47,955 nucleotides of DNA from Candidatus Aenigmatarchaeota archaeon (GCA_030600555.1 JAUVLW010000004.1:1-47955), one strand, 5' to 3'. Counted from the stretch's first letter, positions 10,874-28,188 are shown. The notes: generated by a model not told the origin, from the letters alone. Program-made: numbers and translations.

Positions 10874-10934
10874 TGAGGATTTTCTTTTTAAAAAAGAAAA
10901 TACCTCAACCCAAAAGAAAACACAAATTGGAAAA
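10874..10934 (+). repeat. tRNA intron family B, copy 1 (Arg T-loop intron)
   Basis: TGAGG.TTTTCTTT...AAAGAAA..ACCTCAA..CAAAAGAAA...AAATT is shared with the Glu 37/38 intron. Confidence 0.8.
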
Positions 10935-10976
10935 TCCTGTCATGCCCATATTTATATTTATTAAGTGATCATAATT

Positions 10977-12842
10977 TCATTTATGTTTTTTCCCATGATG
11001 TTCTCTTTTGTGTTTATTTCGTTTTTCTCTTTCCTTTGGAGGTATGGTTCTTTCATCAACTTCCCCAATATTTTCCAGGAATCCAGCATTATCCGCGTTG
11101 TATTGAGCAAAATAAGTTCCTATCTGTTTATAATCGCTAATTTGGTTTTTTGCCAGCCAGTTGAGAAATTTTATTTTATTTAAAATATCCGCATCCATAT
11201 CAACTTCGTTTATTCCTGTTCGGTCAACAATATTTTTTAGCACCACAGATTTATCCGCGATTATAAATTCATCGGATTTTGGGTCCCATTTCGCAAAGTT
11301 ATTTACTAAAGGTCTTTTTGTTTTGTAATCCATTCCAGCAATTTCTTCTATAGCAGTTATTCTTCTGAATATTCTATCTCCTATTTTAACTCTCGAAATA
11401 AAAACAATAACATCCAGAATTTCAAGCAAAGTTGAAGGAAGGTTTATTGGTTCTGTTATTAAACGGTCAATCAAAGTATCAATACTCTCGGCGTGGATGG
11501 TTGCGAGTCCGGGGTGTCCCGTAGCCATTGCCTGAAATAAAACAAAAGCTTCTTTACCCCTAACCTCACCAACAATAATCCGGTCAGGTCTTTGCCTTAA
11601 ACTTTCTCTTAGCAAATCAAATAAAGTTACTGAACCCCGACCTCCTGTGGTAAGCGCTGACCTCGCAACTTCTGGTATCCAGTTTGGATGAGGCAATTGA
11701 AGCTCACCAGTATCTTCAATACTCACAATCTTTTCTTCTGGTTTCGCAAGCATTGAAATTGAGTTTAAAAAAGAAGTTTTACCTGAACCCGTCCCTCCTG
11801 AAATTAAGATAGAACGACCATTTTCCATTGCAAACCAAAGATAGGCCATTATATTAATGTCGCATGTGTGAGACAATACTTGTTTTGATGGGGTGAAAGG
11901 TTCTTTGCTAAATCTACGAATTGTAAAGTTTGAACCTCTTCTTGCAATATCTGTTGCTAAAGTTGCCTGGACCCTGCTGTTATCAGGCAGGATACCATCA
12001 AGCAAAGGGTGAGCAACAGAAAGATCCCTTCCGCATCTCTGAGCCAGTTTCATCACAAAAGAATCCAGTTTTTCAGCATTATCAAAAGCAACATTTGTTT
12101 TTATCGAACCAAATCTTGAATCCCTATGCACGATGTAAAACGGAATATTTGTTCCATCGCATGAAATATCTTCTATATTCTCATCCTGCAATAAAGGTTC
12201 CACCATATCAAAACCAAGGAAATCCCTGTAAACATAATACCTGAAAATTTTTATCATTGATTCTGGAAGATCTAATTTGAAATAATCAATAGCATCATCA
12301 ATTTTTTTAAAGATGTAATTTCTTGCCTCAAACTTTTTTATTGCCGCAAAATCAATATCAATTTTTTCCCTGATGTAATCTTTCAGAACATTCAAAACCT
12401 GCTTATCATATTCGCTTATTTCCGGCTCCACAATTTGATAGATTAGTTCATTACCTGCGTCATTCCAATGTATATGAGTATAAGCGTATATTTCTTCCCC
12501 TCTTTTTGGTTGACTTGGAATTAAAGGATATTTTATTGATATTGTGCGCAAGTCCTGTTTTTTGAAAGATTTTTCGATTGGTTTTATATTTGATTCTACA
12601 TATGGAAAAGGCAAACCTTCCCATTTAACGGCTTTCTTTTTATCTTTGTTCATCCATTCAAAATTTGGAGGAAATTGCCATTGAGGTGGTTTATCTTTTT
12701 TTGGTTCTTCCTTAGGTCTTTCTAATTTAGGCGGTATGTAATTTATTACAATAGGCCTCTTTTTTAAAACATAGTTTATACTTTTCTTTAGTTTTATTGG
12801 TTTCCTTTTCTTAACCCTCTTTCTAATAATTACTTTTACCAT
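10977..12842 (-). CDS. Type II/IV secretion (T4P/archaellum-family) ATPase
   Basis: IEDISCDG, GSNFTIRRF, Walker A GGTGSGKT, SIEDT.EL, LRQRPDRIIVGEVRG, TGH...TIHA. Confidence 0.93.
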   Translation of the reverse strand: MVKVIIRKRVKKRKPIKLKKSINYVLKKRPIVINYIPPKLERPKEEPKKDKPPQWQFPPNFEWMNKDKKKAVKWEGLPFPYVESNIKPIEKSFKKQDLRTISIKYPLIPSQPKRGEEIYAYTHIHWNDAGNELIYQIVEPEISEYDKQVLNVLKDYIREKIDIDFAAIKKFEARNYIFKKIDDAIDYFKLDLPESMIKIFRYYVYRDFLGFDMVEPLLQDENIEDISCDGTNIPFYIVHRDSRFGSIKTNVAFDNAEKLDSFVMKLAQRCGRDLSVAHPLLDGILPDNSRVQATLATDIARRGSNFTIRRFSKEPFTPSKQVLSHTCDINIMAYLWFAMENGRSILISGGTGSGKTSFLNSISMLAKPEEKIVSIEDTGELQLPHPNWIPEVARSALTTGGRGSVTLFDLLRESLRQRPDRIIVGEVRGKEAFVLFQAMATGHPGLATIHAESIDTLIDRLITEPINLPSTLLEILDVIVFISRVKIGDRIFRRITAIEEIAGMDYKTKRPLVNNFAKWDPKSDEFIIADKSVVLKNIVDRTGINEVDMDADILNKIKFLNWLAKNQISDYKQIGTYFAQYNADNAGFLENIGEVDERTIPPKEREKRNKHKREHHGKKHK

Positions 12843-13258
12843 TATCTTGAAATTATTACGCTGTCTTCAGTTGAATGCAATACAAAATATCCCGCTGAAC
12901 TTGTTGCCAACCCATTTGTTAAGATGTCTTCGAAGTTGGATAATTTTCTGGTTATCCCTCCATCGCTTCTAAAGTTGCGAACATTAATATAATTCTTGCT
13001 TAATGAAATTGTGTATCTTGCATCAGATAATTTTTTAGGGATTTCCACGGTGATGCTGCAATCTGCTGATTTTCCGCATAGATACGCTTTTGTTGTTGCC
13101 ATTGAAACAAGGTTGGACATTATATAATATTGTTCTGTCTGAGCCTGTTTTTGAAGTGAAGTGACAAAAGAAGCGACGGTTCCCGCAAGAGATAAGGTTA
13201 TTAATGCACCTATGCCAAATAACAATAATTCATTAATCGCCTTATGCTGTCCCTTCAT
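12842..13258 (-). CDS. Class III signal-peptide pilin-like protein
   Basis: MKG/QHKAINELLLFGIG hydrophobic helix; stop overlaps the ATPase start. Confidence 0.75.
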   Translation of the reverse strand: MKGQHKAINELLLFGIGALITLSLAGTVASFVTSLQKQAQTEQYYIMSNLVSMATTKAYLCGKSADCSITVEIPKKLSDARYTISLSKNYINVRNFRSDGGITRKLSNFEDILTNGLATSSAGYFVLHSTEDSVIISR

Positions 13259-13272
13259 AAAAATATAGATTT

Positions 13273-13875
13273 TTATCTAATATCTACTAATACAAGTGTT
13301 TTTGTGAAAGGTCCTCTTTCCTCACCCATTTTGCTTATCACTATCTTTGAACCTTCAGAGCCTATAATGGTTGCGTTGTATGGGGTTATAATATCCAAAA
13401 GGTAAACACTCCCGTCGCTTTTCGTGAGATTCCTGTAGATTATTTTGTAAGTTGTGAGAGAAGCGTAATTATCGAGCATGTGAACATAAACTCCGGTAAC
13501 AGAATAAGAATCTTTTCCAAACTCGCCTCCTGTTGTGTTGCAACTTTTGCTGAAACATATAAATTGTCCTCCTCCGTAGATAGCAGTTTCTGTTTGCACC
13601 GAGAATTCTATTGTGTTGTTTTTTGCGTTTATCTTTATTTCCCCGGGAATATTAAAAACAAGTTCTTCTATTGAACCTAATTTTGCGACCTCATCAACTT
13701 TTTTATCAAGTTTGAAAAGGAAATTTTCCGCTTTGTACAAAGTTGGTTTATCCATATTTCTCTGAATCATTGGCATCCCCCAGGTGTAAGCAACTGAAGT
13801 AACCACAAGTAGAACACCTATAAGCATAATTGAACTTATTACCACAGAAGCTCCTTTAAATTTTCTGGAATTCAT
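13273..13875 (-). CDS. Archaeal pilin-like protein
   Basis: MNSRKFKG/ASVVISSIMLIGV...WGMPMI. The start is placed at ATG 13875 because the ORF-track extension runs into tRNA-Gly. Confidence 0.8.
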   Translation of the reverse strand: MNSRKFKGASVVISSIMLIGVLLVVTSVAYTWGMPMIQRNMDKPTLYKAENFLFKLDKKVDEVAKLGSIEELVFNIPGEIKINAKNNTIEFSVQTETAIYGGGQFICFSKSCNTTGGEFGKDSYSVTGVYVHMLDNYASLTTYKIIYRNLTKSDGSVYLLDIITPYNATIIGSEGSKIVISKMGEERGPFTKTLVLVDIR

Positions 13876-13899
13876 AATTATCACTATAAATAGATTAAA

Positions 13900-14046
13900 T
13901 GCGGCCGCCGGGATTTGATTACGGCATTGTTTAAACAAAGTCAAACGAATGTACCCGGGTTACTGGCTGTTACCGAAACTTGACCTGGTTTATAATATCA
14001 AAATTTTCGTGGGAAGCCAGGATCCTAACCACTAGACTACAGCCGC
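13900..14046 (-). tRNA. tRNA-Gly(CCC) with two introns (37/38: 13969-14009; 54/55: 13919-13952)
   Basis: Exons join to GCGGCTG-TA-GTCT-AGTGGTTA-GGAT-C-CTGGC-TTCCCAA-GCCAG-TAAC-CCGGG-TTCAAAT-CCCGG-CGGCCGC-A. Both BHBs have one mismatch in the central helix (TTCC/GGTA, CCGG/CCGT), with intron helices GAAA/TTTC and CATT/AATG. Confidence 0.9.
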
Positions 14047-14089
14047 ATAAAAATAGTATTTAGATAAATTATTTAGGGATATTTATAAT

Positions 14090-14611
14090 ATGAAACTGGA
14101 AAAAATTAATATAATTTTAGTAATTATTTTAACTATTTTCTTAATTATCGGTATTCCTCCAATAATAGATTGGGATTTATCTGAGATTTTACCTTCTGAA
14201 GAAAAGATTCATATTATAATTGAACCTGATTATATTAGTGAGGGTCAGTATCCTGAAGGAAGATCAATTAAAGTGATAATCCCAAATATTGCTAAAAATA
14301 ATATTACTTATTTAAAATTATATAAAAATAATGTAAAAGTTGCTCGTCTAAACAAAAATAAAGATACTAAAGTATCTGAACTTTATTGGGATGGCGGTTC
14401 TAGTTATGACAAACCATTAGTGATAGATTATGAGATATCTGGTTTCTCCAAAGATAATTTAACTGCTTCTGGAGAACTACAAGGATGCCCAAATTGTTTT
14501 GAAGGAGAATATTCACCATATCAATTTACTTTTATAATTGATTACAAAATAGGGGGCAGTGATATAATAATTACCACCAAACCTATAAAAGTGAAACTTC
14601 CAATAATCTAG
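14090..14611 (+). CDS. Hypothetical membrane-anchored/secreted protein
   Basis: N-terminal hydrophobic helix; beta-rich body with CPNC. Confidence 0.65.
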   Translation: MKLEKINIILVIILTIFLIIGIPPIIDWDLSEILPSEEKIHIIIEPDYISEGQYPEGRSIKVIIPNIAKNNITYLKLYKNNVKVARLNKNKDTKVSELYWDGGSSYDKPLVIDYEISGFSKDNLTASGELQGCPNCFEGEYSPYQFTFIIDYKIGGSDIIITTKPIKVKLPII

Positions 14612-14650
14612 TTAGTAACCGAGTATTTAATCAAAAAATGAAAGAATTTT

Positions 14651-15661
14651 ATGATGGAGATTGATGGAAATTACCTTGAGGGGGGAGGTCAGATACTAAG
14701 GACTTCTGTGGCTTTATCCTGTTTAACCGGGAAGCCAGTTCATATATTCAATATAAGGGCTGGGAGACCCACACCAGGGCTAAAAGCTCAGCATCTGGCG
14801 GCGATATCCGCTGTTGCTGAACTGTGCAATGCAAAGCTTGAAGGGGGCGAAATTGGCTCAGAAGAGATTTCTTTTCATCCTGGGGAAATTAACAAGGAAA
14901 AACTGACAATTAATATTTCAACCGCGGGTTCTGTGGGTCTGGTTTTGCAGGCTATTTTTCCCGCATGCGTTAATTTAATTAAACCTCTTAAAATTGAGAT
15001 TATTGGGGGAGGGACTTTTGGGAAATGGGCTCCTTCAGTTGTTTATCTCCAGAAAGTATTTTTGCCGATTCTGGAAAGATTTGGTTTTAAAGCGGATGTG
15101 AAAATTCTCAAACACGGGTTTTATCCGAGAGGCGGAGCTAAAGTTGTTGCGGATATTTTCCCATCAAAATTGAAAGGTTTTTCTATCGATGGCGGAGTTG
15201 ATAAAATTGAAGGAATCTCAATTGTTTCTGAAAAACTGAAAAACGCAAAAGTTGCGGAAAGGCAGGTTGATGGGGCAAAGAAAATTCTTGAGAAATTAAA
15301 TCTACCCGTTGAAATAAAAACCGAATATGTTGATTCAACTTCGGTCGGAACAGGAATTGAACTCTGGACAGATAAAACTATTTTGGGGGCGGGAACTCTC
15401 GGAGAAATTAGAAAAAAAGCTGAGAAAGTTGGGAGCGAATGCGCTGAGATCTTGAGTAAGGAAATTAATTCGGGGGCGACAGTTGACAAACATCTTGCAG
15501 ACCAGTTGATTCCTTTTATGGGTCTTGCGGAGGGAAATTCTGGTTGCAAAATTTCTGAACTAACCAACCACACAAAAACCAATATTTGGGTTATAGAGAA
15601 ATTCTTGGATAGAAAGTTTGAGATTAAGACTATGGGGGGTTTGTATGAGGTTTGTGTTTGA
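14651..15661 (+). CDS. rtcA: RNA 3'-terminal phosphate cyclase
   Basis: IDG.YLEGGGQILRT, IRAGRP.PGLKAQH, TAGSVGLVLQ, GFYPRGG, VDKHLADQLIP, T.HTKTN (adenylated His). Confidence 0.96.
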   Translation: MMEIDGNYLEGGGQILRTSVALSCLTGKPVHIFNIRAGRPTPGLKAQHLAAISAVAELCNAKLEGGEIGSEEISFHPGEINKEKLTINISTAGSVGLVLQAIFPACVNLIKPLKIEIIGGGTFGKWAPSVVYLQKVFLPILERFGFKADVKILKHGFYPRGGAKVVADIFPSKLKGFSIDGGVDKIEGISIVSEKLKNAKVAERQVDGAKKILEKLNLPVEIKTEYVDSTSVGTGIELWTDKTILGAGTLGEIRKKAEKVGSECAEILSKEINSGATVDKHLADQLIPFMGLAEGNSGCKISELTNHTKTNIWVIEKFLDRKFEIKTMGGLYEVCV

Positions 15662-15712
15662 ATTGTAATTGTTTCTTCAATTTTTTATTATTCTTTAAGT
15701 CAATAGATAAGT

Positions 15713-16429
15713 ATGAGGAGTAAGGATAAGTTAAATTATCCTCACCAAACCGACTCTGATTTTTTTGGATTTACAAGTGATTGGCATATTGGCAATAAGC
15801 ATGCAAATGAAAATTATATTTTAGATTATCTGGATTTATTAAAAGAACGCGGGGTAAAACAGATATTTCACGGGGGTGATTTGTTTGAAGGTTATAAAAT
15901 ACACCGCCGTCAAACAAATGAACTGCTTCTTGATTGTTTTGGAATGGAAGAACAGATAAAACATTTTAATAATTTAATCCCAAAACAAAAAGATTTAAAT
16001 ATGAAATTAATTTCAGGCAATCATTTGATTAAGAATCATAAAGGCAAGAATGTTGTTGAAAAATTATGCTATGAAAGAAGTGACATAGATTATCTTAGTA
16101 AGTATGATGGTCTTGTTAAACTGAAAGATGGAGTTGCTATGGAAATAATCCATCCGAGCAGAGGGTCTCTGTATAAAGGATTATCTGAATTTAATGAATA
16201 TCTAAATTTATGCCAAACCAACCCGGACATTCTTGGCGTGGGTCATAAACACATATCCAATTGCCATTTATATAATAATGTTGTTTGTTATCATTTGGGA
16301 ACTTTTCTTAGCGAATCAAATAAGAGAAACAACAAATTTTCACCGGATATCGGAGCGTGGATAGTTGAGTTGGATATTGATAATGGGGAGATACTTTCTA
16401 ATAAGAGTGATTGGATTAGTTATGAGTGA
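15713..16429 (+). CDS. Calcineurin-like metallophosphoesterase
   Basis: SDWH, HGGD, SGNH, IIHP and GHKH motifs. Confidence 0.88.
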   Translation: MRSKDKLNYPHQTDSDFFGFTSDWHIGNKHANENYILDYLDLLKERGVKQIFHGGDLFEGYKIHRRQTNELLLDCFGMEEQIKHFNNLIPKQKDLNMKLISGNHLIKNHKGKNVVEKLCYERSDIDYLSKYDGLVKLKDGVAMEIIHPSRGSLYKGLSEFNEYLNLCQTNPDILGVGHKHISNCHLYNNVVCYHLGTFLSESNKRNNKFSPDIGAWIVELDIDNGEILSNKSDWISYE

Positions 16430-16509
16430 ATATTTTTTATCCCTCTCATTATCTCTACAAGGTCTTTTAATTTACTCAATTCCATATCTCTGGCAAAAGA
16501 TTAAATTAT

Positions 16510-17925
16510 TTAATTAACCCCCTCTTCAATAATTGTCTCTTTGGTAACTTCTTTTGTTAGTTTAATATCTTCGGTTAATTGTTTTTGTTTCCAGGTCCCT
16601 TTTGCGAACCAAGCAATTGTTATAACTGCGGCAATAACATTAGCCACTGGAAACGCTATCCAGATACCGAGTTCTGCAAGAACTGTGTGTTTTGATAATA
16701 GATAAGCTAAAGGAAATCTTAGAACCCACAGGGAAACTATGGATAAAACCAAAGGAATCATTGTGTTCCCTGAACCCCTAAAAGCCCCGTTCAAAGACAT
16801 TTGCACTCCAATGAATCCAAAAGTTAAAGCCATTATTTTAATAAACAAAGCGGTTGCTTTAATGGTTTCCAATTCCCCTGGAATAAAGATTGCGGAAATC
16901 TGCTCAGCAAATAGAAAAAATAAAATTCCCACTAGAGTTAAAATAATGAATCCTGTTAAAGAACTTAATTTTGCTATTTTTTCCGCTCTTTCCATTTTCC
17001 CTGCGCCAATGTTCTGACCAACTAAAGTTGAAGTTGCCATAGACAATCCTATTGCAGGAAGAACAATGAAACTTAATATTCTGCCCCCAATACCATAAGC
17101 GGCTAAGGTAAGAGTTCCAAAACCCGCAACTAAAAATGTCATGACAAGTATACCTAACGCTCTTGTTGATTGTTCAATGGAAGCTGGAACTCCCAACTTA
17201 AACATTTTTTTGAGCAAAGGAACATCAGGTTTTAAATCACTTAATCGCAAATGTATTTGATGTTTCCCTCTCAGCAATATTATTATGCCAATTACTGCGG
17301 CTATTCCCTGAGTAATTATTGTGGCAACAGCAGCCCCACCCACGCCAAGAGCTGGAATAAACCAATACCCAAAAATAAATAAAGGGTCAAGAATAAGATT
17401 TAAAAGAACAGTTCCAAAAACAATATACAAAGGGGTTTTAACATCCCCAACACCCCTCATCAATGATTGAAAGACCATGTAGGTAAACATAAAAATCATT
17501 CCAATAAAAGAAATTCTCATATACGAAACTGCTCCTGAAAAAACGCTGGATTCAACTCCCATCAAACTAATAAGTTGAGGAGATAAAAAATAACCTAAAC
17601 CAGAAAGGATGATTGAGACAATAACCATCATCAACAAAGTTTGACACGCAATATGATTTATTGCTTTTTTGTTCTTTTTACCTTTGTATTGAGCAACAAG
17701 AATTGTGCCTGCTATTGATAATCCGCCCCCTAAAGAAATAATCAGAAAAATAAGAGGGAAACTAATGGAAACTGCGGCGATTGCATCTGTGCCAAGCCGC
17801 CCAACCCAAAAAGTATCTATTAATTGATAAGCTGATTGCAATATACTCGCAAAGATAATGGGTACTGATAGAGTTATCAGGGATTTTAAAATAGATCCTT
17901 CAGTCAAGTTATTTCGCTCTCCCAT
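16510..17925 (-). CDS. MATE family efflux transporter
   Basis: NLTEGSILKSL..LSVP, IDTFWVGRLG, RG.GD.KTPL, NLILDPLFI; about 12 TM helices. Confidence 0.95.
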   Translation of the reverse strand: MGERNNLTEGSILKSLITLSVPIIFASILQSAYQLIDTFWVGRLGTDAIAAVSISFPLIFLIISLGGGLSIAGTILVAQYKGKKNKKAINHIACQTLLMMVIVSIILSGLGYFLSPQLISLMGVESSVFSGAVSYMRISFIGMIFMFTYMVFQSLMRGVGDVKTPLYIVFGTVLLNLILDPLFIFGYWFIPALGVGGAAVATIITQGIAAVIGIIILLRGKHQIHLRLSDLKPDVPLLKKMFKLGVPASIEQSTRALGILVMTFLVAGFGTLTLAAYGIGGRILSFIVLPAIGLSMATSTLVGQNIGAGKMERAEKIAKLSSLTGFIILTLVGILFFLFAEQISAIFIPGELETIKATALFIKIMALTFGFIGVQMSLNGAFRGSGNTMIPLVLSIVSLWVLRFPLAYLLSKHTVLAELGIWIAFPVANVIAAVITIAWFAKGTWKQKQLTEDIKLTKEVTKETIIEEGVN

Positions 17926-17964
17926 TTATGTATAATCAATTTAAAATCTTATCAGATTGTTCGC

Positions 17965-19491
17965 TTAAACAACAACCTTCCTCGCAATCCCAACAATCTT
18001 GTCAAAGTCTTTCCGGTTTGGTTTATACTTTGCGAATTCAACAAGACTGCACATACCCAGACATTTCTGCACATCCAGATATTTTCCATTTTTTTTCTTC
18101 CTCATCAGTTTTAGCAAATCTGTGTTTGTGATTTCTTTTTTAGTTCCTAATTTGTAAGAGAAATAAAATCTTACTCCCCGAGAAACTTTCTCATAGGCAT
18201 CTTTTTCTTTCTTATCCCCAAACAATTTTTCAGCCTCAACAATCATTTTTTTTGCTTCTTTTTTGTAATCAACGGGTTTGTTTAGGTTTATTTCAGCAAT
18301 TTCTGTTTGCGGGTTAACAACTCTAAAATATTTATTGTAAATAACCCAACCAACAATGCAAGCCAACAAAATCAGCAACACCCACCACAGATTATTTGAA
18401 CTTTCTTCGTCCTTTTTTTCTGATAAACTTACTTTTTCAATTTCCCCGTCAATATATTCAGCAGTGATATTCATGGATTTTCCTTCGCTGTTATTGTAAG
18501 GAATGGTTATTTCCGTGTGGTTCTGGGTTAATTGATTAAATTGAGGTTGCGTGTTATTAAATCTTTTTAACTGTTCTTCATTGAATTTCTGAAACTCTTT
18601 GTTCTCCCCAAGTTTTTGCATCATTTCCTGTTTATCTTCTTCAGTCAGAGACCTGAGATTCTCCATAGTCCCGTTCTTCATCTCGCCTTTCAAAGAAGCT
18701 TTTTCACCTCCAGGCTTGCTGTAATTAAATTCAAATTTACCTGAATCATTTGCTGAGGGGTCAAGAGAAGTTTCTTCAGGAGTGTACCCTTTATCCATCA
18801 TTTCCTGATGTTTTTCCTGAAGTTCAGAATTATTCTCAAGATTCTTTTTGAATTCTTCCTCCATTTGTTTTTGTTCCTGAACCTGTTTATCCATCTGTTG
18901 TTTCAGGGCCTTTGTGTCCTGATTCATCTGGTTGTTCTGAATTTTACTGCTCGCGGGATGTTGTTGAGGTTCCTGGGGTTCTTGTTGTGGTTGTTCCTGA
19001 GATTGTTGCTCTGATTTCTCAGAAGAACTTTGCATAGGATCTTCCTCATTTTTTTGCTGATTCTGATTTTCCACAAAATAGATTAAAAATTCATCAAGTT
19101 CAATTGTCACAGGAACTTTTTCATTGTAATTAAATTCCAGTTTTACCCTTAAAGTTGTTGGTTGATCAGAAGTTCCAAAAGCAAAATTTGCTTTACTATA
19201 TCCATTTTCCACAACGAATGATTTTGATTGTGAATGAACTTTTGAACTATAGAAACCGCCCTGATTAATTTCCTGCGTAATTGTATAAGTTAATTGTCCT
19301 TTAATTCGTTTCCCGTAAGTGTTGTTTTCATCCATTTCAATTATCGCATCCTGACCAATAAGAAAATAATATTCTGTTTGGTTTAATGAAAAAACAATAT
19401 CTTCCGCAAAAACAATATTTGTTCCGGTAAACATTAAACTAAGTGCCAAGGCAAAAATCAATCTTCCCAGTAACCCGCAATTTATATTCAT
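17965..19491 (-). CDS. Secreted/membrane protein with Gln-rich linker (last gene of the MoxR-vWA operon)
   Basis: Signal peptide, Q/E/P-rich region, TM helix (NLWWVLLIL), C-terminal LVEFAKY.P motif. Confidence 0.75.
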   Translation of the reverse strand: MNINCGLLGRLIFALALSLMFTGTNIVFAEDIVFSLNQTEYYFLIGQDAIIEMDENNTYGKRIKGQLTYTITQEINQGGFYSSKVHSQSKSFVVENGYSKANFAFGTSDQPTTLRVKLEFNYNEKVPVTIELDEFLIYFVENQNQQKNEEDPMQSSSEKSEQQSQEQPQQEPQEPQQHPASSKIQNNQMNQDTKALKQQMDKQVQEQKQMEEEFKKNLENNSELQEKHQEMMDKGYTPEETSLDPSANDSGKFEFNYSKPGGEKASLKGEMKNGTMENLRSLTEEDKQEMMQKLGENKEFQKFNEEQLKRFNNTQPQFNQLTQNHTEITIPYNNSEGKSMNITAEYIDGEIEKVSLSEKKDEESSNNLWWVLLILLACIVGWVIYNKYFRVVNPQTEIAEINLNKPVDYKKEAKKMIVEAEKLFGDKKEKDAYEKVSRGVRFYFSYKLGTKKEITNTDLLKLMRKKKNGKYLDVQKCLGMCSLVEFAKYKPNRKDFDKIVGIARKVVV

Positions 19492-20448: not shown

Positions 20449-20449
20449 T

Positions 20450-21331
20450 TTATCTCACCATCCTCTTTTTCCTTAACGCGAAGAATTTTCTAAGAGGAGC
20501 ATAAAAAGAATCATCAGTATTTAATTGAATAATATCTATCTTTAACTTTTTCATTTTTCTTAATAATTCATTGTTTATTTTACTGGCTTGAGCTTTGTAA
20601 GTATTCCTGAAATTTTCGTCTGCGGTATTCACAAGAACCTGTTCCCCGGTTTCCTCGTCTTCAAGGAAAATATATCCCAAATTAGGAATCTCTTTTTCTA
20701 TTGAATCAGATAATTTCACAAGTATTACATCATGCCTTTTCTTTAGAAATTTTATGGGTTTCTCAAATGACCCGGAAACATAATCGGATATTATAAAAAT
20801 CACGCTTCTCTTTTTTATTATTTTGCTTAGATGGACTAAAGAATTATTTACGTCAGTTTCCCTGTGTTTTGGTTCATAATAAATTAATTCCCTTAGCATT
20901 GCAAGCAAGTGTTTCTTGCCCTTTCTTGGTCTGAAGAATCTCTCGATTCTATCGGTAAATAAACACATACCCACATTATCATGGTTCTTCAACGCTGAAA
21001 ACATCAATGCCGCGGAGATTTCAAACCCAATTTCTTTCTTTGCTTTTCTGTGACCGAAATTACCGCTTGCCGAGATGTCTGAGACAATATAAATATCAAG
21101 GTCTCTCTCCTCTATAAACTCTTTTACAAAAGGCGAATTATATCTTGCTGTAACTTTCCAGTCAATTGTCCGGATATCATCGCCCGGGATATATTCCCTT
21201 ACTTCGGAAAATTCAATTCCTCTTCCCTTAAAAACTGAATGATAGTTTCCGCACATGAGACCCTCAACCAATTTATTTGTTTTTATTTCGAGTTTTTTTA
21301 CCTTTCCAATTATCTCTTTTACTTTAGGCAT
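20450..21331 (-). CDS. DUF58 family protein
   Basis: G.YHS.FKGRG.EF.EVREY.PGDD.R.IDW.VTAR. Confidence 0.93.
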   Translation of the reverse strand: MPKVKEIIGKVKKLEIKTNKLVEGLMCGNYHSVFKGRGIEFSEVREYIPGDDIRTIDWKVTARYNSPFVKEFIEERDLDIYIVSDISASGNFGHRKAKKEIGFEISAALMFSALKNHDNVGMCLFTDRIERFFRPRKGKKHLLAMLRELIYYEPKHRETDVNNSLVHLSKIIKKRSVIFIISDYVSGSFEKPIKFLKKRHDVILVKLSDSIEKEIPNLGYIFLEDEETGEQVLVNTADENFRNTYKAQASKINNELLRKMKKLKIDIIQLNTDDSFYAPLRKFFALRKKRMVR

Positions 21332-21336
21332 TTTAT

Positions 21337-22323
21337 CTAAGGGGTTTCTATTTTTGAAAGAATATCATCGATTATTTTATCTGCCATTATATCTTCTGCC
21401 TCTGCTTCGTAGGTTAATATTATTCTGTGCCTTAAAACATCGTGAGCTATTTCTTTTATATCTTCTGGGATTACATAACCGCGACCGTTTAATAAAGCAT
21501 GAGCTTTTCCCGCTAAAATGAGCCATATTGAGGCTCTTGGAGAAGCCCCATAATCAATCAGTTCTCTTATCTTCAAGCCGTAATCTTCAGGATGTCTTGT
21601 TGCGTCAACAATGCATGCAACATATTCTTCAATTTTCTCATCAACATAAATTTTCCTGTTGAATTCCTGAATCTTGATTAGTTCTTTTGAGTTCATGATG
21701 GGTTTTGTTTTGATTTCAATTCCCTGCGTATTTCTTTGGATAATAATTTTTTCTTCATCTTTCTTTGGGTATTCGATTATTAACTTAAATGTAAATCTAT
21801 CAACCTGAGCTTCAGGAAGTTTGTAAGTTCCTTCGGTTTCAATTGGATTCTGTGTTGCCAAAACAAGGAATGGTTTATCAAGTTTAAAAGTGTTTCCCTG
21901 AATGCTTACCTGTTTTTCCTGCATTGCCTCAAGCAAAGCTGACTGTACTTTTGGAGGAGCTCTGTTAATTTCATCCGCGAGAATAAAGTTGCTGAATATT
22001 GGTCCTTTTTGCGTGTAGAAATTTCCTTTTTTATTGTCATAAATCTGGGTTCCTGTTATGTCCGCGGGGAGCAAATCCGGGGTGAATTGTATCCTGCAAA
22101 AGTTTACATTAAAGGTTTCTGACAAAGTATTTACCATCAGAGTTTTTGCCAGTCCGGGAACTCCTTCAAGAAGAACATGACCGTCCGCTATTAAACAAAT
22201 AATAAGTTTATCAAGAATCTCTTCCTGCCCCACAATAACTTTTTTTACTTCGTCCAACACTGAATTTAATTTCTCTGAGTGAATTTGAGCCTGCGAGTTT
22301 AATTTTTTAATTTCCGAGTTCAT
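21337..22323 (-). CDS. moxR: MoxR family AAA+ ATPase
   Basis: GHVLLEGVPGLAKT, RIQFTPDLLPADITG, LADEINRAPPKVQSALLE, ATQNPIE.EGTY.LPEAQ.DRF. Confidence 0.95.
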   Translation of the reverse strand: MNSEIKKLNSQAQIHSEKLNSVLDEVKKVIVGQEEILDKLIICLIADGHVLLEGVPGLAKTLMVNTLSETFNVNFCRIQFTPDLLPADITGTQIYDNKKGNFYTQKGPIFSNFILADEINRAPPKVQSALLEAMQEKQVSIQGNTFKLDKPFLVLATQNPIETEGTYKLPEAQVDRFTFKLIIEYPKKDEEKIIIQRNTQGIEIKTKPIMNSKELIKIQEFNRKIYVDEKIEEYVACIVDATRHPEDYGLKIRELIDYGASPRASIWLILAGKAHALLNGRGYVIPEDIKEIAHDVLRHRIILTYEAEAEDIMADKIIDDILSKIETP

Positions 22324-23369
22324 AATTATAGGTGTAAAATAATAAATCTATTTCTTTAAGAATAAGTTGCCGGATACAAAACCAATTTACTAAAAATAAA
22401 TAATTAATGTTATGTCTATTTCAAATCCATTGATTTCTATAATTATCCCTACTTTGAACGAAGAAAAGTACATTCTTAATCTGCTTGACTCGATAAAAAA
22501 GCAGACATATAATAATTATGAGATTATCGTCTGCGATTCGCATTCAGAGGATAAAACACCTCAAATAGCAAAATCTTTCGGCTCTGAATTTATTTTGGTA
22601 GATAAAAAAGGTCCGGGACCTGCTAGGAATCAGGGCAGGAAAAAAGCAAAAGGAGAATATTTATTGTTTCTTGACGCAGATGTAATAATTCCGGATGAAG
22701 ATTTTCTTGCAAGACTCATAAAGCATGTAGAGAAAGAGAATCTCGGTCTCGCGAATGTTTTCCAGTTTCTTCATCCGTTTAGTGTAAAAGATATTCCCGC
22801 TAACATTGTAGTGAATATTTATTTCAAACTTTCTTCTTATTTTAGTCCAATAGGCGGCGGGTTTTTCATTCTTGTAAAAAAAGATGTTTTTGATGAAGCC
22901 AATGGTTTTGATGAATCAATAAATGTGGGTGAAGATTCAGATTTCATAAGAAGAACCAGCAAAATATCAAATTACAGCATGCTTAATCAATATATATTTT
23001 ATTCAAATAGAAGATTTGAACTGGAAGGGCGACTGAATCTGTATTCAAAATATATTTATCTGCATTTTGATGAACTGCTTGAACCTGTCCTTGGAAAAAT
23101 TGAATTAGACTATAAATTCGGGCATTATAATCTGAGCAATGAAACCAAAAAATACAATTTTCTTATGGATAGAATAAATTTTATATTTCATGAAAATAAA
23201 AATGACCTTCTTGAGCTTTACCGAAAAAATATTATAAAAATCAAAAACAGTCAGGAAATAACTAAAATTAAAAAACTAAGCAAAAAACTAAAGACTAAAA
23301 TAAAGTTTCCTTCATCGCAATAACTTTTTTCACTTCATCTAACACTGAATTTAATTTCTCTGAATAAAT
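22233..23369. repeat. 52-nt imperfect direct repeat (22233-22284 and 23318-23369); the second copy is a moxR 5' remnant
   Basis: 47/52 identical by manual alignment; the copies encode IHSEKLNSVLDEVKKVI and IYSEKLNSVLDEVKKVI. Confidence 0.85.
22412..23323 (+). CDS. Glycosyltransferase family 2
   Basis: ISIIIPTLNEE, ARNQG, LLFLDAD, GFDE...GED.DF. Confidence 0.92.
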   Translation: MSISNPLISIIIPTLNEEKYILNLLDSIKKQTYNNYEIIVCDSHSEDKTPQIAKSFGSEFILVDKKGPGPARNQGRKKAKGEYLLFLDADVIIPDEDFLARLIKHVEKENLGLANVFQFLHPFSVKDIPANIVVNIYFKLSSYFSPIGGGFFILVKKDVFDEANGFDESINVGEDSDFIRRTSKISNYSMLNQYIFYSNRRFELEGRLNLYSKYIYLHFDELLEPVLGKIELDYKFGHYNLSNETKKYNFLMDRINFIFHENKNDLLELYRKNIIKIKNSQEITKIKKLSKKLKTKIKFPSSQ

Positions 23370-24838
23370 CATTCCAAATAATCACTATCAACTCTTCGAC
23401 CTTTAAATGTCTTTTTTCCATGATAGTTTGCATAAACATCCCCGATAATTTCTTTACTCTGACCAATATATTGAATAGGATCTGTAATATTTCTTAAAGT
23501 ATCTTCAGGTAATAGGTCAGTGATTTCTTTATTTTCCAGCACTATTTCAACAAAAGGTCTTTTGGCATCGTATGCTTCGGTGGCAAGTTTCGCAACTAAA
23601 TCATGAGCGTATTCCCTCGTCATTGGATTTTCGGTTCTTGTCCTGTCTGTCAAATAAGTCATGACTTGTTGGGAAGTCGGGACCCCATAAGAACGTTCTA
23701 CTCTTTCCCTGCATCTGTCTTCAACAGCTTCAAGAACATACAATACTTTTGCAAGATTTCTTATAACATAATCTCCCCATTTGAAAGATTCTTCCAGAGT
23801 TATTCTATCTGTTGCCGAAGCTCTTAAGTCCCTTCCATAATCTAAACCGCAGGAACCCAAAGTTGTCTGCATAACCCCTCTCATGTAATTTGTAAAACCT
23901 TCAGTTTGTTCTTCTCTTCTCGGATTTCCGCCTTTGGCATCTTTGTGAGGCATTGCTGAGGAACCTTTATCTCCCATAGGGAATTTAAAAATACCAACAT
24001 CATCGCTTCTTCCCATCCTGATATAATGAGCAAGGTTTCCTAAAGTTTCTGAACTTCTTGCCAAAGCATAAACGCAATCCGCAATAAATTCTCTCCCCGG
24101 TATCTGAGCCGGAGCCATCATATGACCAACTTCACAAAATCCTTCGCAGTAGAGTTTCTCAAGTTTCTTTCCATTCATTTTTAAAGCAGTTGCGGAATGA
24201 TGATTTCCTGTTGCATCGCCCCATTTTCCTTTTATTGAATTGTTGTAAACATAATCCAAAAATTCCAAATCTGATTGGAGCATTTCCCCATAATGCGCAA
24301 AAGGTCTTCCAAGAACTGTTGGCAAAGCATCGTAAAGATGGGTCGTGTCCATGTGGGGAATGTTCATCCAGTCAACGCTTCTTTCAAGAGTAATATCCCT
24401 TAAATTTTCAAGTGAATCCGCAATCACCTCAATTGATTTTTTGAGTTGCATTGCTTTTGCGGTTTCGGTGGTGTCCGCGCTTGTTCTTCCCTTGTTAATA
24501 TGAGCCGCAGCATTATCACTTACCTGTTCGCCCAAAGCAGTATTTATTGCAATAACATCATGTCCTGTGAGTTCTTCAAGTTCTCTTATCCTGTTTGGGT
24601 TTATTTCTTTAAGATTTGCTTTTAATTTAATTTCTCTTGCATCATTTTCAGGGACACTTTCAGGGTATAAATAACTCATAGCGCCAACAGCATCTGATTG
24701 AGCTCTTAAACAATATTCAAAAGTTTTTTCAGGACCCCAGATATTTATCATTTCTTTGGTCCCGTATCTTCCCGCAACAAGAGTGCAGGGATTGGTGTGT
24801 GAATCTATTCCTGTGGGTTTTGGCTTGGTTTTTACCAT
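23369..24838 (-). CDS. purB: Adenylosuccinate lyase (fumarase/ASL superfamily)
   Basis: RYG..EM..IW, E..T.HDV.A, H..A.PT..G, GATG, GSSAMPHK(DAKGG)NP. Start placed at ATG 24838. Confidence 0.85.
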   Translation of the reverse strand: MVKTKPKPTGIDSHTNPCTLVAGRYGTKEMINIWGPEKTFEYCLRAQSDAVGAMSYLYPESVPENDAREIKLKANLKEINPNRIRELEELTGHDVIAINTALGEQVSDNAAAHINKGRTSADTTETAKAMQLKKSIEVIADSLENLRDITLERSVDWMNIPHMDTTHLYDALPTVLGRPFAHYGEMLQSDLEFLDYVYNNSIKGKWGDATGNHHSATALKMNGKKLEKLYCEGFCEVGHMMAPAQIPGREFIADCVYALARSSETLGNLAHYIRMGRSDDVGIFKFPMGDKGSSAMPHKDAKGGNPRREEQTEGFTNYMRGVMQTTLGSCGLDYGRDLRASATDRITLEESFKWGDYVIRNLAKVLYVLEAVEDRCRERVERSYGVPTSQQVMTYLTDRTRTENPMTREYAHDLVAKLATEAYDAKRPFVEIVLENKEITDLLPEDTLRNITDPIQYIGQSKEIIGDVYANYHGKKTFKGRRVDSDYLE

Positions 24839-24877
24839 AAAATAGTTTAAACAGAAATTTAAGTATTGCAATGAAAA

Positions 24878-25606
24878 TTATTCATAAGATAAAGGAACAG
24901 CCCGATTTTTAAATACATACCTGTCATCTATATAACCACTTCCAGAATTACAACGAATCATCCAAGTAAGTGTATGATTTCCTTCAGGATAACTTATTAT
25001 ATTAATCATGTTTGTAAAAGTCTCTTCAAAACCATATGCATTTCCATATGTTTTCATATCCCAAATTAAATTTCCGTCCAAAAATACATTCAAATAAATA
25101 TAATGGTTAGTCCCTCCAGTATATCCTTTTAAATCAGCCTGAAGTTTTATATCTTTTATATTCTTATTCTTGTCTGCCGGGTCGGTTCTATCAATAATGA
25201 AACTATTATTTCCAACGAATACCCATGCACCGCCAGATATAGCATTAATTCTATTGGAATCATAAAATATTTGTTTATCTATATTATCTCTATCAACAAT
25301 ATAAAAATCAGCGCCTCCAAAACCAGATTCATTTATATTTTTGCAATTATTTCCATTTTCATCACAATATTGAGAAGCCATTATTTTATCATTTACATTC
25401 AAATCACCGGGAATATTCCACTGAGGATTTGCTAAGCCTGAATCATTAAAAGTTCCTGGACCAATCATCCCCGGATGCATTCCAGGGTTTGGATAATTTC
25501 CATAAGGTCCTGTTGAATAAGTTGCGAGAATTGCAGAGCCAATGCAAATTATAAAAGTTAATAAGATTCCGAGAGTAAGTTTCTTGTTTTGTTTGGATTC
25601 TATCAT
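24878..25606 (-). CDS. Secreted surface/fibre-like protein
   Basis: Signal peptide; NPGMHP..IGPGTF and GDLNV...YCDENGNNC motifs; beta-rich C-terminal domain. Start placed at 25606. Confidence 0.65.
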   Translation of the reverse strand: MIESKQNKKLTLGILLTFIICIGSAILATYSTGPYGNYPNPGMHPGMIGPGTFNDSGLANPQWNIPGDLNVNDKIMASQYCDENGNNCKNINESGFGGADFYIVDRDNIDKQIFYDSNRINAISGGAWVFVGNNSFIIDRTDPADKNKNIKDIKLQADLKGYTGGTNHYIYLNVFLDGNLIWDMKTYGNAYGFEETFTNMINIISYPEGNHTLTWMIRCNSGSGYIDDRYVFKNRAVPLSYE

Positions 25607-25652
25607 AATATATATATATAAGTAAAATATAACCAAAACCAGTTTAATATAT

Positions 25653-26570
25653 TCAATCCTCCCACTTATGCTCAGGATTTCTTGGGATTATTATCCACGC
25701 AATTATATACATTAAGATTCCAGCACCCCAGGCAAGACTTCCGAGCACCCAGAGGAGTCTGATTAGCACAGGGTCAACATTTAAGTGTTCTGCAATTCCC
25801 CCGCATACTCCCCCTAAAATTCTTTCTTCTCCAGACCTGTAAATTCTTGGGATTTCTTTTTTGGAGGTTTTTGTTTTAGATATCCTTTTTACCATAATCT
25901 TATTCTTTGTGTTTTTTATTGATTCTTTTGAAAGTATCTTGATTAATAAAATAAAATATCCGAACAGGATAACAAACCAGAATATCCAAAAAAGGTTCTT
26001 CTCTGCATAAAAAGCAAGAGTATAGATTGTTGAAATATTTTCATAAATCCCGATGATTCCAATTATTCGCAGAACAACCCAGGCCCCTATTACAAAACCC
26101 AAGGCATTAAGGATTGGGGAAAATAGTAAATAGATTCTTCTGTGATTCCTCGAAAAATATGAAGTGTATGAAAAGAAAATGAATATAAGAAAAAACAAAC
26201 CTAAATTTGCAAGAAAAAATAAATGTATTCCTGAGAGAATATTATTCTTCATATAAAAATTCATAAATCCCAATGTCCAGACACATAAAACAAGGAATAA
26301 TAACCCAAATATTCCTGAGATTAAAGGACCTGCCCACCCAAGAGTTTTATTAAACCAGCATTCTGTTCTTTCGCATTTTCTGTCTGCGTTTTTTTCAAAT
26401 TTTCTTCCAAGTGTATGAATTTCCTTACCAAAGTGTTTTATGTTGCGTTCTAAAGGTTGTGTTTTCTTTTTGGGAATATTATTATTCTTAATGTTTTTTG
26501 TTTTCTTATTTGAGATTTTTTTCTCAGGGGATTTTTTGGTTTTCACATTAACTGATTTTTTCTTAGGCAT
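25653..26570 (-). CDS. Membrane protein with C-terminal PspC domain
   Basis: RIYRSGEERILGGVCGGIAEHLNVDPVLIRLLWV...YIIAWIIIP; four upstream TM helices. Confidence 0.88.
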   Translation of the reverse strand: MPKKKSVNVKTKKSPEKKISNKKTKNIKNNNIPKKKTQPLERNIKHFGKEIHTLGRKFEKNADRKCERTECWFNKTLGWAGPLISGIFGLLFLVLCVWTLGFMNFYMKNNILSGIHLFFLANLGLFFLIFIFFSYTSYFSRNHRRIYLLFSPILNALGFVIGAWVVLRIIGIIGIYENISTIYTLAFYAEKNLFWIFWFVILFGYFILLIKILSKESIKNTKNKIMVKRISKTKTSKKEIPRIYRSGEERILGGVCGGIAEHLNVDPVLIRLLWVLGSLAWGAGILMYIIAWIIIPRNPEHKWED

Positions 26571-26593
26571 AATATATTAAATATATTCGTTTA

Positions 26594-27169
26594 TTATTCT
26601 ATAACCCCTCTATTTTTTAATTCAAAAAAACATTCAGCGCAGGCAGTTGTGTCTATCATGGCATCGTGTCCGTTCAATAATGGTTTGTGGAATAACACGC
26701 TGTGAAGTTCTGATAAATTAGGCCATTTATATTTCCGGTATCTGCAGGGTATTTTGCAATAATCCATTGAAGATTTCATAGTGCAGATTTTAGGGATTTC
26801 CAAAAGATTGGTTGCGATATTGTTTCTCAATAATTCAGCCCCGACAATTTTTTCATCAAAACTAATATTGTGGGCAACCAAAGTTTTTGAGCTATTCAGA
26901 GCTTCTGAAAATTCCAGCAATACTTCTTTTAAATCAGACCCTTCATTAACAGCCATCTCATGAGTTATTCCGTGAATTTTTGAGACTCTTTCAGGTATCA
27001 TAAATCCCTGCGGTTTTATTACGTAAGTCTTTCCCAGCAATTTCTCTCCTGAATTATTATATTGCAACCAGGCAATTTGCACCATTCTTGGCCAGTTATC
27101 CAGTTCTGAAATTGGGGCTTTATAATCTTTTGGCAAGCCCGTGGTCTCTGTATCAAAAAATAAGTACAT
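26594..27169 (-). CDS. DnaQ-like (DEDDh) 3'-5' exonuclease
   Basis: FFDTETTG, IHGIT, VAHN.SFD, HDA..D. Confidence 0.92.
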   Translation of the reverse strand: MYLFFDTETTGLPKDYKAPISELDNWPRMVQIAWLQYNNSGEKLLGKTYVIKPQGFMIPERVSKIHGITHEMAVNEGSDLKEVLLEFSEALNSSKTLVAHNISFDEKIVGAELLRNNIATNLLEIPKICTMKSSMDYCKIPCRYRKYKWPNLSELHSVLFHKPLLNGHDAMIDTTACAECFFELKNRGVIE

Positions 27170-27239
27170 AATCTACCATCAATTATTTTTATTAAGTCAG
27201 GTATTAATTTTTTATTAAACCAATTTTAACAATTATAAA

Positions 27240-27818
27240 TCACCACCGGTTTATCTTAATTATGTTTGTCTCAACCGCTCTTTTGTACAACCCATCAACA
27301 ACTTCTAGATTGTTTGAAAGATGTGATTTTATTTTATCAAGGTCTTTGTTATAGTATAATTTTGCAATATCTTTTCCTTCGATTTCTGTGGTTTCGAGTT
27401 TTAGCAGGGAAGCGTATTCTTTAAGTTTCCCCCGGGTTTTTCCATATCTGTAAGCGTTTATTTTATCTCTCAAATCAATTATTTGTTTCAGGGAAAAAGG
27501 CGATATAATATTTCCATTAATGAAACTTCTTGTTGCGATAAAAGGTATGTCAAAATTTGAAATGTTGAATCCGATTATTGAATTATAGGAATTTCCTTTT
27601 GTAATTAAATTCCATTCAAACCAGAATTTATCAATAATCTCTTTTTCATTTTCCCCGCAGAATATTTTATTTTCCCCCTGACACCGCATCCCAAGAGCGA
27701 TTATTTTCGAGTCAATTGGGTTTAATAATTCCTTTTTTGAATCCTCGTCCAAATTTATATATTTCTCAATTTCGATTGGGACGGTTTCTATTGATACGAT
27801 AATATAAGGGTTTGCCAT
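27240..27818 (-). CDS. PolB-type/RNase H-like exonuclease-fold protein with a degenerate active site
   Basis: VSIET (ExoI, D to S), GFN..NFDIPF (ExoII), H...N in place of Y...D (ExoIII). Confidence 0.75.
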   Translation of the reverse strand: MANPYIIVSIETVPIEIEKYINLDEDSKKELLNPIDSKIIALGMRCQGENKIFCGENEKEIIDKFWFEWNLITKGNSYNSIIGFNISNFDIPFIATRSFINGNIISPFSLKQIIDLRDKINAYRYGKTRGKLKEYASLLKLETTEIEGKDIAKLYYNKDLDKIKSHLSNNLEVVDGLYKRAVETNIIKINRW

Positions 27819-27880
27819 AATTAATTATAAAACTATTTGGGTTATTAATATGCCCCTGCCGGGAATTTCATATACCCCAA

Positions 27881-27978
27881 AATTACTTTTTGGGGTGCAG
27901 AACTTGTTTTTTCAAAGAAAAAACATATGTTTTACTTTCCGTAGAACATCCTTTTCGACAATTGTATCGAAAAGGGTT
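27881..27978 (-). repeat. tRNA intron family A, copy 2 (in the Glu 59/60 intron)
   Basis: Same element as 10712-10811 in the transcript sense. Confidence 0.92.
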
Positions 27979-28001
27979 GCTTTGAACCCGGGTCACCGGC
28001 T

Positions 28002-28071
28002 GTCTCCTTAGGTTATTTTTGAATTTTCCTTTCTTTTGCTTGAGGTGTTTCTTTCGAGAAAGAAAACCTCA
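28002..28071 (-). repeat. tRNA intron family B, copy 2 (Glu anticodon intron)
   Basis: TGAGGTTTTCTTTCTCGAAAGAAACACCTCAAGCAAAAGAAAGGAAAATT. Confidence 0.8.
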
Positions 28072-28188
28072 CGAGAGGCCGGTATCCATGGTCCCTTTAT
28101 TTTATTGAAATTTGTTTCTTTTCTAAAAAGAAAGGGTTTAACCGAGCTAGACTACAGGGGCATAAATGTAAATAAAAATAATCTAATT

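Follow-up and report, generated by a model that had tools for sequence, protein, structure and literature searches.

An A/T-rich repeat with a predicted triplex fold in tRNA introns of a Candidatus Aenigmatarchaeota archaeon

The BoxC, PIT and TM_ECO repeats are class II triplex repeats in which a pyrimidine arm is followed by a purine arm and a third purine strand; they are short, dispersed and multi-copy, and their copy number and flanks differ between relatives (PMC4666352, cited here and below for the part of the source that was accessible). According to the same source, intrastrand triplexes of the purine type are not formed by RNA, polymerase can be halted by such structures, and neither the mechanism behind the instability of BoxC/TM sites nor that of their spread is known. 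In Thermoproteales, similar introns at different positions of different tRNAs have been regarded as transposed introns (PMC4033280, PMC4090602); in the accessible portions of these reviews the whole intron is shared and confined to introns, and how archaeal tRNA genes gain or exchange introns is described as unknown (PMC4090602). Here we describe a repeat, termed B, that lies in introns of the tRNA-Arg(TCT) and tRNA-Glu(CTC) genes on a 47,955-nucleotide contig of a Candidatus Aenigmatarchaeota archaeon (GCA_030600555.1 JAUVLW010000004.1:1-47955). This contig, analysed over its full length, is referred to as the window and is contig C32 of the source genome, G000 (815-kb assembly, 82% complete). 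The other archaeal genomes compared are designated G001 onwards, and genus, family and class sets of genomes were used for counts.

B shares with BoxC/PIT/TM_ECO the order of its three strands and its short, dispersed, multi-copy nature. It differs in being A/T-rich rather than G/C-rich, in its occurrence in DPANN archaea and in run lengths that vary and covary, and also in its strong sense bias, its sharp 5′ end at stop codons or splice sites, its presence inside tRNA and rRNA introns and the additional hairpins, termed cargo, that are stacked on it; B is known here from sequence. TM_ECO has a G/C-rich consensus, is always intergenic and lacks strand bias (PMC4666352), none of which holds for B. 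B works like BoxC but is not BoxC itself, and on these features is best seen as an A/T-rich BoxC-like repeat colonising splice-protected sites. Compared with the Thermoproteales introns, the common part is found outside RNA genes as well, the 3′ ends are site-specific and all 36 tRNA genes found in G000 are interrupted. The features of the two genes, which also contain a second repeat termed A, are as follows.

10632..10948 (+): tRNA-Arg(TCT) gene with three predicted bulge-helix-bulge (BHB) introns (15/16, 37/38 and 59/60); 21/21 stem pairs once the introns are removed; orthologs in G005, G006 and G008.
10647..10683 (+): Arg 15/16 intron, kept in relatives; not B.
10707..10851 (+): Arg 37/38 intron, an A-type repeat with cargo hairpins; G006 and G008 are intronless here and G005 is B-type.
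10874..10934 (+): Arg 59/60 intron, 61 nt, the B repeat followed by a short 3′ part providing the splice helix.
10874..10907 (+): Arg B hairpin, from the fold, with outer stem, pyrimidine arm (10880-10889) and purine arm.
10912..10920 (+): Arg mirror purine tail, the predicted third strand, a 9-nt parallel complement of the pyrimidine arm.
27851..28161 (-): tRNA-Glu(CTC) gene with three predicted BHB introns (21/22, 37/38 and 59/60); 21/21 stem pairs; orthologs in 7 genus genomes.
28088..28137 (-): Glu 21/22 intron, an old stem-closed intron with a B-like inner hairpin but neither outer B stem nor mirror tail.
28002..28071 (-): Glu 37/38 intron, 70 nt, the B repeat (hairpin 28071-28041) plus a 3′ end; common to G005 and G008, with G001 and G006 intronless.
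28029..28037 (-): Glu mirror purine tail, in which an extra G mirrors the second C of the Glu pyrimidine arm.
27865..27980 (-): Glu 59/60 intron, an A-type repeat with cargo.

Gene and intron mapping confirmed the Arg 59/60, Glu 37/38 and Glu 21/22 introns named in a preliminary description of this DNA, and folds showed that both full copies of B open at the 5′ splice site with a TGAGG...CCTCA hairpin, as had been noticed there. Removal of the introns restores the cloverleaf in both tRNAs, and intron-free alleles exist in relatives. The central splice helix has 4/4 pairs in Glu 21/22 and Glu 37/38 and 3/4 in Arg 59/60, and the predicted cuts fall 2 nt 3′ of the helix on both strands. In one study, three runs yield DNA contigs that are ≥99% identical to the Arg B intron and cover part of the Glu gene; the source sample may be among them. 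The Arg 59/60 and Glu 37/38 introns share the hairpin and an A-rich tail, and their similarity exceeds that in 2000 dinucleotide shuffles, which do not keep homopolymer runs (score 42 versus a mean of 19.0 and a maximum of 34; z 7.0, 0/2000). Folded alone, the Arg 59/60 intron has z −4.8 and the Glu 37/38 intron only z −1.4. The relationship proposed for Glu 21/22 also stood above shuffles (z 4.5 and 4/2000 with Arg 59/60, z 3.4 and 15/2000 with Glu 37/38) but proved weak and limited to the core hairpin. In the orthologs of G001, G005, G006 and G008 the closing stem is the same and the inner hairpin is smaller, so that Glu 21/22 is an old intron with an enlarged loop.

It is very likely that B is a dispersed repeat rather than an intron family. 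Further B-like copies occur at other tRNA sites in G000, namely 59/60 of Thr(TGT), Arg(TCG) and Leu(CAA), 37/38 of Ala(CGC), 15/16 of Ala(GGC) and 20a/20b of Ser(GCT), and the B skeleton is present in 9 of the 71 G000 introns versus 0.1 in shuffles, 8 of them clean if the His 17a/18 match is, as is probable, a cargo hairpin. Glu 21/22 does not figure among these nine. Sharing between introns is limited to the 5′ repeat, the 3′ ends differing site by site. An all-versus-all comparison of the 71 introns and 12 non-tRNA copies joined 46 sequences into one network, partly via common cargo, and recovered a B community of 11 introns and three free copies. Of the earlier proposal of independent intron families that move among tRNA sites, the non-random nature of B, its recurrence at other tRNA sites and its turnover are upheld, whereas the mobile unit is the repeat at the 5′ start of the intron and not the intron. 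The best matches of the Arg copy are free copies on contigs C12 and C22 (scores 69 and 48), ahead of Glu 37/38 (42), and the Glu copy is closest to Leu(CAA) 59/60 (score 91; 98% over 48 nt). Because their closest relatives lie elsewhere, the two window copies are not sisters, and the apparent swap of A and B between the two tRNAs, in which A does occupy Arg 37/38 and Glu 59/60 (z 49), reflects two of many landings rather than a reciprocal exchange. Nor does it follow that B is older because it is more diverged, given the near-identical Glu 37/38 and Leu(CAA) pair.

Outside RNA genes, free B copies in G000 lie just past a start codon of the opposite strand on C12, C22 and C33, and directly after the secY stop codon on C9, and a free A copy directly follows the tmk stop codon on C3. 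Across the class the B pattern was found in 110 of 301 genomes, including all 11 genus genomes, with up to 31 copies per genome, while the same pattern read backwards as a control gave 0-2 matches per genome. Its spread is patchy by family (8/8 genomes in family f11, 0/23 in f13, several families without it), and 191 of the 301 genomes have none. A stricter pattern matched 21 times in 185,579 species genomes: by genome title, 11 matches are in Aenigmatarchaeota, one in Woesearchaeota, one in Nanoarchaeia, eight in further archaeal genomes and none in bacteria. In 13 of the 21 (a raw count) an in-frame, same-strand stop codon lies 3-7 nt 5′ of the pattern and is often the repeat's own first triplet; five are in tRNA genes (three called, two read by eye) and three elsewhere. 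In G114, 11 of 15 copies are stop-adjacent, the only context class used as a count among the multi-genome copies, whose labels under-call tRNA genes. B is also found after tRNA 3′ ends, between co-oriented ribosomal-protein genes and in rRNA genes (16S of G041, with a 4/4 splice helix, 16S of G217 and 23S of G041); no 16S gene is present in the G000 assembly. One A pattern and one B pattern gave no matches in viral contigs. Most copies have a sharp 5′ end at a T(A/G)A triplet, and their 5′ flanks are variable by eye. Many G114 copies end in a common G/C-rich 3′ motif ∼20-35 nt past the tail. Two uL15-type genes in G000 (C9:26913-26362 and C28:9457-9981) are each preceded by a tail-less B-like hairpin.

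The repeat consists, in order, of a pyrimidine arm, a loop, a purine arm, a linker and a purine tail that is the mirror image of the purine arm, the second A-tract thus being the parallel complement of the pyrimidine arm. The preliminary description had noted two possible A-rich partners for the U-rich arm. Both are present in the sequence, but the second scarcely pairs in the ensemble computed as RNA (probability 0.000 in Arg and 0.011 in Glu), and an alternative Watson-Crick fold using the tail was ruled out by these values (≤0.011) from a program that cannot model triplexes. Among 209 distinct hairpin views gathered without requiring a tail, the tail lies downstream in 91 and upstream in 3, a ratio that is biased in that many loci were fetched by a tail-core pattern. 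The first run of the tail equals the first T-run in 70 of the 91 copies (permutation mean 30.7, maximum 46), compared with 24/91 for a direct-repeat and 24/91 for an antiparallel rule. With tails permuted within seven genomes the match was 68/79 (mean 30.0, maximum 47, 0/5000), compared with 13 for direct and 12 for antiparallel, so that neither of these rules exceeds chance in either set. Where a C follows the second T-run, a G stands at the matching place in the tail in 18 of 28 copies, versus 7 of 39 where the run continues, and run classes 3-6 recur across several genomes. These counts make a triplex-shaped constraint on the repeat quite likely, the predicted triplex being of the class II purine type on the sense DNA strand or of the pyrimidine type on the other strand. 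Column-wise counting of pairs on alignment A1 gave 499 of 500 shuffles as high as the alignment, the structure string being out of register and run-length variation staggering the columns. Among 61 perfect-stem loops, 18 are C-G-closed triloops, none is cUUCGg and one is GNRA (raw counts). Triloops closed by C-G are better suited to DNA than to RNA. No terminal inverted repeats bound the whole element, as they do in a miniature inverted-repeat transposable element, since the tail falls outside the hairpin.

The cores of A and B have no significant alignment (z 1.1-2.0). The independence of the two, as first proposed, is nevertheless doubtful: hybrids with A-type ends and a B core and tail occur in G016 and G010, an intermediate occurs in G008, and the same cargo sits at the same place in both. 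Since these hybrids and the intermediate exist, A and B are likely to be subtypes of one skeleton. At orthologous sites the repeats turn over. Arg(TCT) 37/38 carries A in G000 and B-type sequence in G005, is intronless in G006 and G008, and is occupied by a different sequence of 59 nt in a contig from another study; Arg(TCT) 59/60 carries B in G000 and G005 and other subtypes in G006 and G008. Glu(CTC) 37/38 carries B in G000, G005 and G008, B with cargo in G009, no intron in G001 and G006, and other introns in G003 and G007; Glu(CTC) 59/60 carries A in G000 and G008, B in G001 and nothing in G006 and G009. Leu(CAA) 59/60 carries B in G000 and A in G006 and G008. In a secY tree G005 branches before G000, G001, G006 and G008 (support 95/98); hmgA and tmk trees gave no resolved branching. 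Since B at both window sites is common to G005, whereas A at Arg 37/38 occurs only in G000 among the four genus orthologs seen, both window B insertions are probably older than the A insertion at Arg 37/38, for which a single gene tree is thin support, and whole introns were probably lost or replaced later at these sites. Turnover extends to gene ends: at secY, G000 and G008 have a filled end and G001 and G006 a nearly empty one, and at tmk G000 carries A and 4/4 relatives do not. At Glu(TTC) 37/38, G000 has a related hairpin extension relative to G005. Two further loci were noted: in G005 a ∼620-nt insertion after the secY stop codon (L107) begins with cargo hairpins and contains a broken reading frame by eye, and in G007 the anticodon intron of tRNA-Gly(TCC) (L009:1701-1251), short in G010, is swollen by nested and tandem repeat copies.

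The cargo is a double-hairpin module of 42-87 bp without a conserved peptide that nests inside A and B repeats, at the foot of the right arm, and also occurs in protein genes. The hmgA gene (HMG-CoA reductase) contains a 42-bp in-frame antisense cargo that is absent in 5/5 relatives, and an AlbA_2-domain gene contains an in-frame cargo of 45 bp in G000 and 87 bp in G001 that is absent in G006 and G008. In-frame cargo is also present in one of the two uL15 copies (that on C9 only) and in a TIM-barrel gene on C3, for which five relatives gave no ortholog to serve as an empty site. The hmgA junction is compatible with a 4-bp duplication or with microhomology, and no clear duplication is seen at other sites. 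In tRNA introns the cargo occurs in both orientations, being antisense in G000 Gln(CTG) and G008 Glu(CTC), which points to copying at the DNA level. For the cargo module only, a parallel exists in the Rickettsia palindromic elements, in-frame palindromic inserts in unrelated housekeeping genes; in the accessible part of PMC10969869 these are ∼150 bp long with a conserved peptide, whereas the cargo is shorter, lies in either orientation and has none. An IS200 tnpA gene in G019 (L063, just upstream of 1501) is apparently broken by a double-hairpin insertion in a small stem.

The tRNA genes were located with our own intron-aware profile scan of the non-coding DNA of G000, since ARAGORN without its intron option found none of the three tRNA genes in the window and one in the whole genome; Rfam gave one chance-level match in the window. 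Thirty-six of 38 scan matches were kept, the two discarded being a false match of 532 nt on C23 and, at C22:3797-3703, a degenerate fragment resembling Val(CAC) that lies close to the intact gene. Introns interrupt 36/36 genes, one in 10 genes, two in 17 and three in 9, giving 71 in total with lengths of 13-157 nt (median 54; >60 nt in 30/71). They lie at 59/60 (n=25), 37/38 (n=16), 54/55 (n=7), 53/54 (n=4), 38/39 (n=1) and in the D-arm (n=18), and the T-arm is interrupted in 35/36 genes. The central splice helix has 4/4 pairs in 57 introns, 3/4 in 12 and 2/4 in 2, of which one (Asn) becomes 4/4 after a one-base correction of the gene end; the helix score fed the boundary optimiser and guided the boundaries set by hand in 16 of the 36 genes, and these counts are a description, not an independent test. 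The third tRNA gene of the window, Gly(CCC) at 14046-13900 (-), has introns at 37/38 (14009-13969) and 54/55 (13952-13919) that are neither A nor B. tRNA-Ile(TAT) (C1:2424-2634) has three introns, those at 53/54 and 59/60 flanking a 6-nt exon, and a Leu(AAG) tRNA is also present in G000; both anticodons have been reported for ARMAN (PMC3239211, accessible part). Several tRNAs interrupted at 59/60 have C, T or G in place of A at position 59, as if this base had been replaced by the first one of the insert. tRNA-Gln(CTG) (C26:25426-25140) has an apparent C at position 33 and the longest intron, 157 nt at 53/54, with antisense cargo. The end of C1 (C1:3328-3419) repeats the start of tRNA-Ala(GGC) on C34, a likely assembly overlap.

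Splicing of these genes would depend on EndA. One EndA gene (PF01974 and PF02778, L001:928-1800) and no second subunit was found in the G000 assembly; its best named matches are Aenigmatarchaeota proteins, and it lies directly before a truB/cbf5-type gene. The protein has a Lys/Glu-rich N-terminal extension of ∼110 residues and, relative to M. jannaschii EndA, a 6-residue insertion that aligns with the N. equitans loop and from its position is likely the L3 loop. In DPANN α4 EndA this loop has been linked to heavy tRNA disruption (PMC5829648, accessible part), and the G000 enzyme resembles that type in its loop insertion, whereas it is unlike ε2 EndA in being single-unit with a long N-terminal extension. 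The ARMAN-2 introns of pre-tRNA-Cys (59/60, hBH) and pre-tRNA-Pro (53/54 and 59/60) share the T-loop positions and relaxed motifs seen here (PMC3239211), and no repeat origin is described for them in the accessible parts of PMC3239211 and PMC5829648. All 18 D-arm introns have their own closing helix beside the splice motif, whereas such a helix is missing from 20 of the 25 introns at 59/60 and from 8 of the 16 at 37/38. In the T- and anticodon loops the motif is closed by the stem of the tRNA, and a repeat can begin right at the cut.

We lean towards the view that B is a short dispersed repeat with a predicted intrastrand triplex, likely copied at the DNA level, that survives in tRNA and rRNA genes only where splicing would remove it; that host repair does the copying, rather than a dedicated enzyme, has about even chances. 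In the model, DNA under replication would stall or break at the hairpin or triplex. Repair would then switch template to another copy, led there by homology of a few bases, and so paste in a repeat whose 5′ end is sharp and whose 3′ end is ragged. Copying of this kind would also swap subtypes (A, B and hybrids) at a site and add double-hairpin cargo in either orientation. Selection would then decide which landings persist: those at a stop codon or just behind one, those that follow the end of a tRNA, for cargo alone those that keep the reading frame in a protein loop, those within introns already present, and those in the T- and anticodon loops. In these two loops, an insert would need only ∼4 complementary bases near its end to become an intron for a broad-specificity EndA, so few sufficing because the host tRNA stem already closes the splice motif.

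Several observations weigh against this model. The chief one is the sense bias: all nine B-pattern introns in G000 are sense-oriented (0 antisense) and most free copies are sense after a stop codon, which a purely DNA-level process would account for only with added selection, such as that against further U-tracts in transcripts; in E. coli the TM repeats have no strand bias of this kind (PMC4666352). The mirror counts overstate the number of independent events, copies within one genome being related, and most loci outside G000 were chosen by a pattern requiring a 7-nt tail core, which left only run lengths free. The mirror rule is weak in G051 (3/7), and the 12 discordant cases do not name the folding strand, the tail following the left arm in five and the right arm in four. 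At the C12 site the G001 allele is a different sequence of similar length, no near-identical filled and empty pair defines the B-core junctions, and the 'empty' secY alleles could be deletion remnants. Some copies of B invaded existing introns, such as Ala(GGC) 15/16 in G000, so that creation of introns de novo by the repeat is no more than possible. Lastly, Y1 transposases (PF01797) are enriched in the genus, occurring in 7/10 of its genomes and in 28/151 class genomes.

The main rival, which we consider unlikely, is that a dedicated nuclease or transposase acting in trans, of the REP/RAYT, PATE or BoxC/DUF559 kind, recognises the hairpin or triplex and moves the same repeat. The sharp 5′ end at T(A/G)A in most copies, the patchy spread (f11 8/8, f13 0/23), a head-to-head inverted B pair in G114 (L206:9316 and 9414) and the Y1 transposases in 7/10 genus genomes would all fit such an enzyme. 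However, Y1 transposase genes were absent from the assemblies, themselves incomplete, of G000 and of B-rich G023, G071, G110 and G114, and 28 Y1 loci inspected (20 + 8) have their own G/C-rich end hairpins with no B at their ends, whereas in REP/RAYT systems and IS200/IS605-derived PATEs the Y1 transposase is flanked by the same hairpins. GIY-YIG was rejected as a mobiliser, being present in 9/9 genomes of the B-free family f2 and not in G000. TnpB gave one weak 18-bit match and does not track B; DUF559 was found in 0/16 genomes of the family and reverse transcriptase in 0/16 other family genomes, again in incomplete assemblies from which missing genes do not prove absence. The genes between close B copies are housekeeping genes.

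It is improbable that independent intron families transpose whole between tRNA sites, possibly via excised intron RNA as proposed for Thermoproteales. In such a process copies would be expected to have near-identical 5′ parts, as Glu 37/38 and Leu(CAA) 59/60 do, to begin exactly at the splice site in sense orientation only, and to be precisely lacking as whole introns in some relatives, as in G001 and G006 at Glu 37/38. What is common, however, is the 5′ repeat alone, the 3′ ends being site-specific; copies lie outside RNA genes, and around two free copies read by eye (C3 and C12) there is no splice helix. The antisense cargo, the lack of reverse transcriptase in the family and the A/B hybrids also speak against the transfer of whole introns.

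Equally doubtful is the view that B is a host-maintained RNA element, a terminator or 3′-end protector with its A-rich tail docked on the stem, that is selected at gene ends and only secondarily in introns. Although the sense bias, the stop-codon position (13/21, and 11/15 in G114) and the copies after tRNA 3′ ends agree with it, close relatives differ in whether B stands at a given gene end, and B occurs between co-oriented ribosomal-protein genes as well as within pre-tRNA and pre-rRNA, in which termination would do harm. Triplexes of the purine motif are reported as absent in RNA and the E. coli PIT as without terminator activity (PMC4666352), and 191 of the 301 genomes lack the pattern. 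That the copies are convergent low-complexity A/T hairpins of local origin, as an A/T-rich genome, the loss of homopolymer runs in dinucleotide shuffles and the marginal Glu 21/22 match (15/2000) might suggest, is very improbable and for full copies largely refuted by the 98% match over 48 nt between sites, the near-zero backwards control, the skeleton in 9/71 introns versus 0.1 in shuffles, whole families without B and the mirror rule, but is possible for Glu 21/22.

In the open-access literature we found nothing that joins tRNA introns with triplex repeats or describes B, although A/T-rich archaeal motifs may appear in the ITxF tables of Holder et al.; the accessible parts of two preprints (10.64898/2026.09.22.753630 and 10.64898/2026.05.13.725050) contain nothing on B. 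Bacteria are known to have triplex repeats, and Rickettsia to have palindromes inserted in frame. A bolder and tentative extension, which we think more doubtful than not, is that a selfish triplex repeat is the factory of DPANN tRNA and rRNA introns, making them de novo with the help of the host stem and driving every tRNA gene to dependence on a relaxed EndA, with A, B and cargo forming one modular, enzyme-free mobile family that also writes loops into essential proteins.

If the proposed copying of B is correct, it would join intron gain with BoxC-type spread: the sequence shared between introns would be a genomic repeat with a predicted three-stranded fold, and EndA splicing would make RNA genes safe landing sites for it. 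The mirror rule would represent natural covariation evidence for intrastrand triplexes and would define oligonucleotide and splicing substrates. It would also account for the poor yield of standard tools, which overlook almost every tRNA of these genomes, as ARAGORN did in the window (0/3), and may explain how such introns arise and change so fast.

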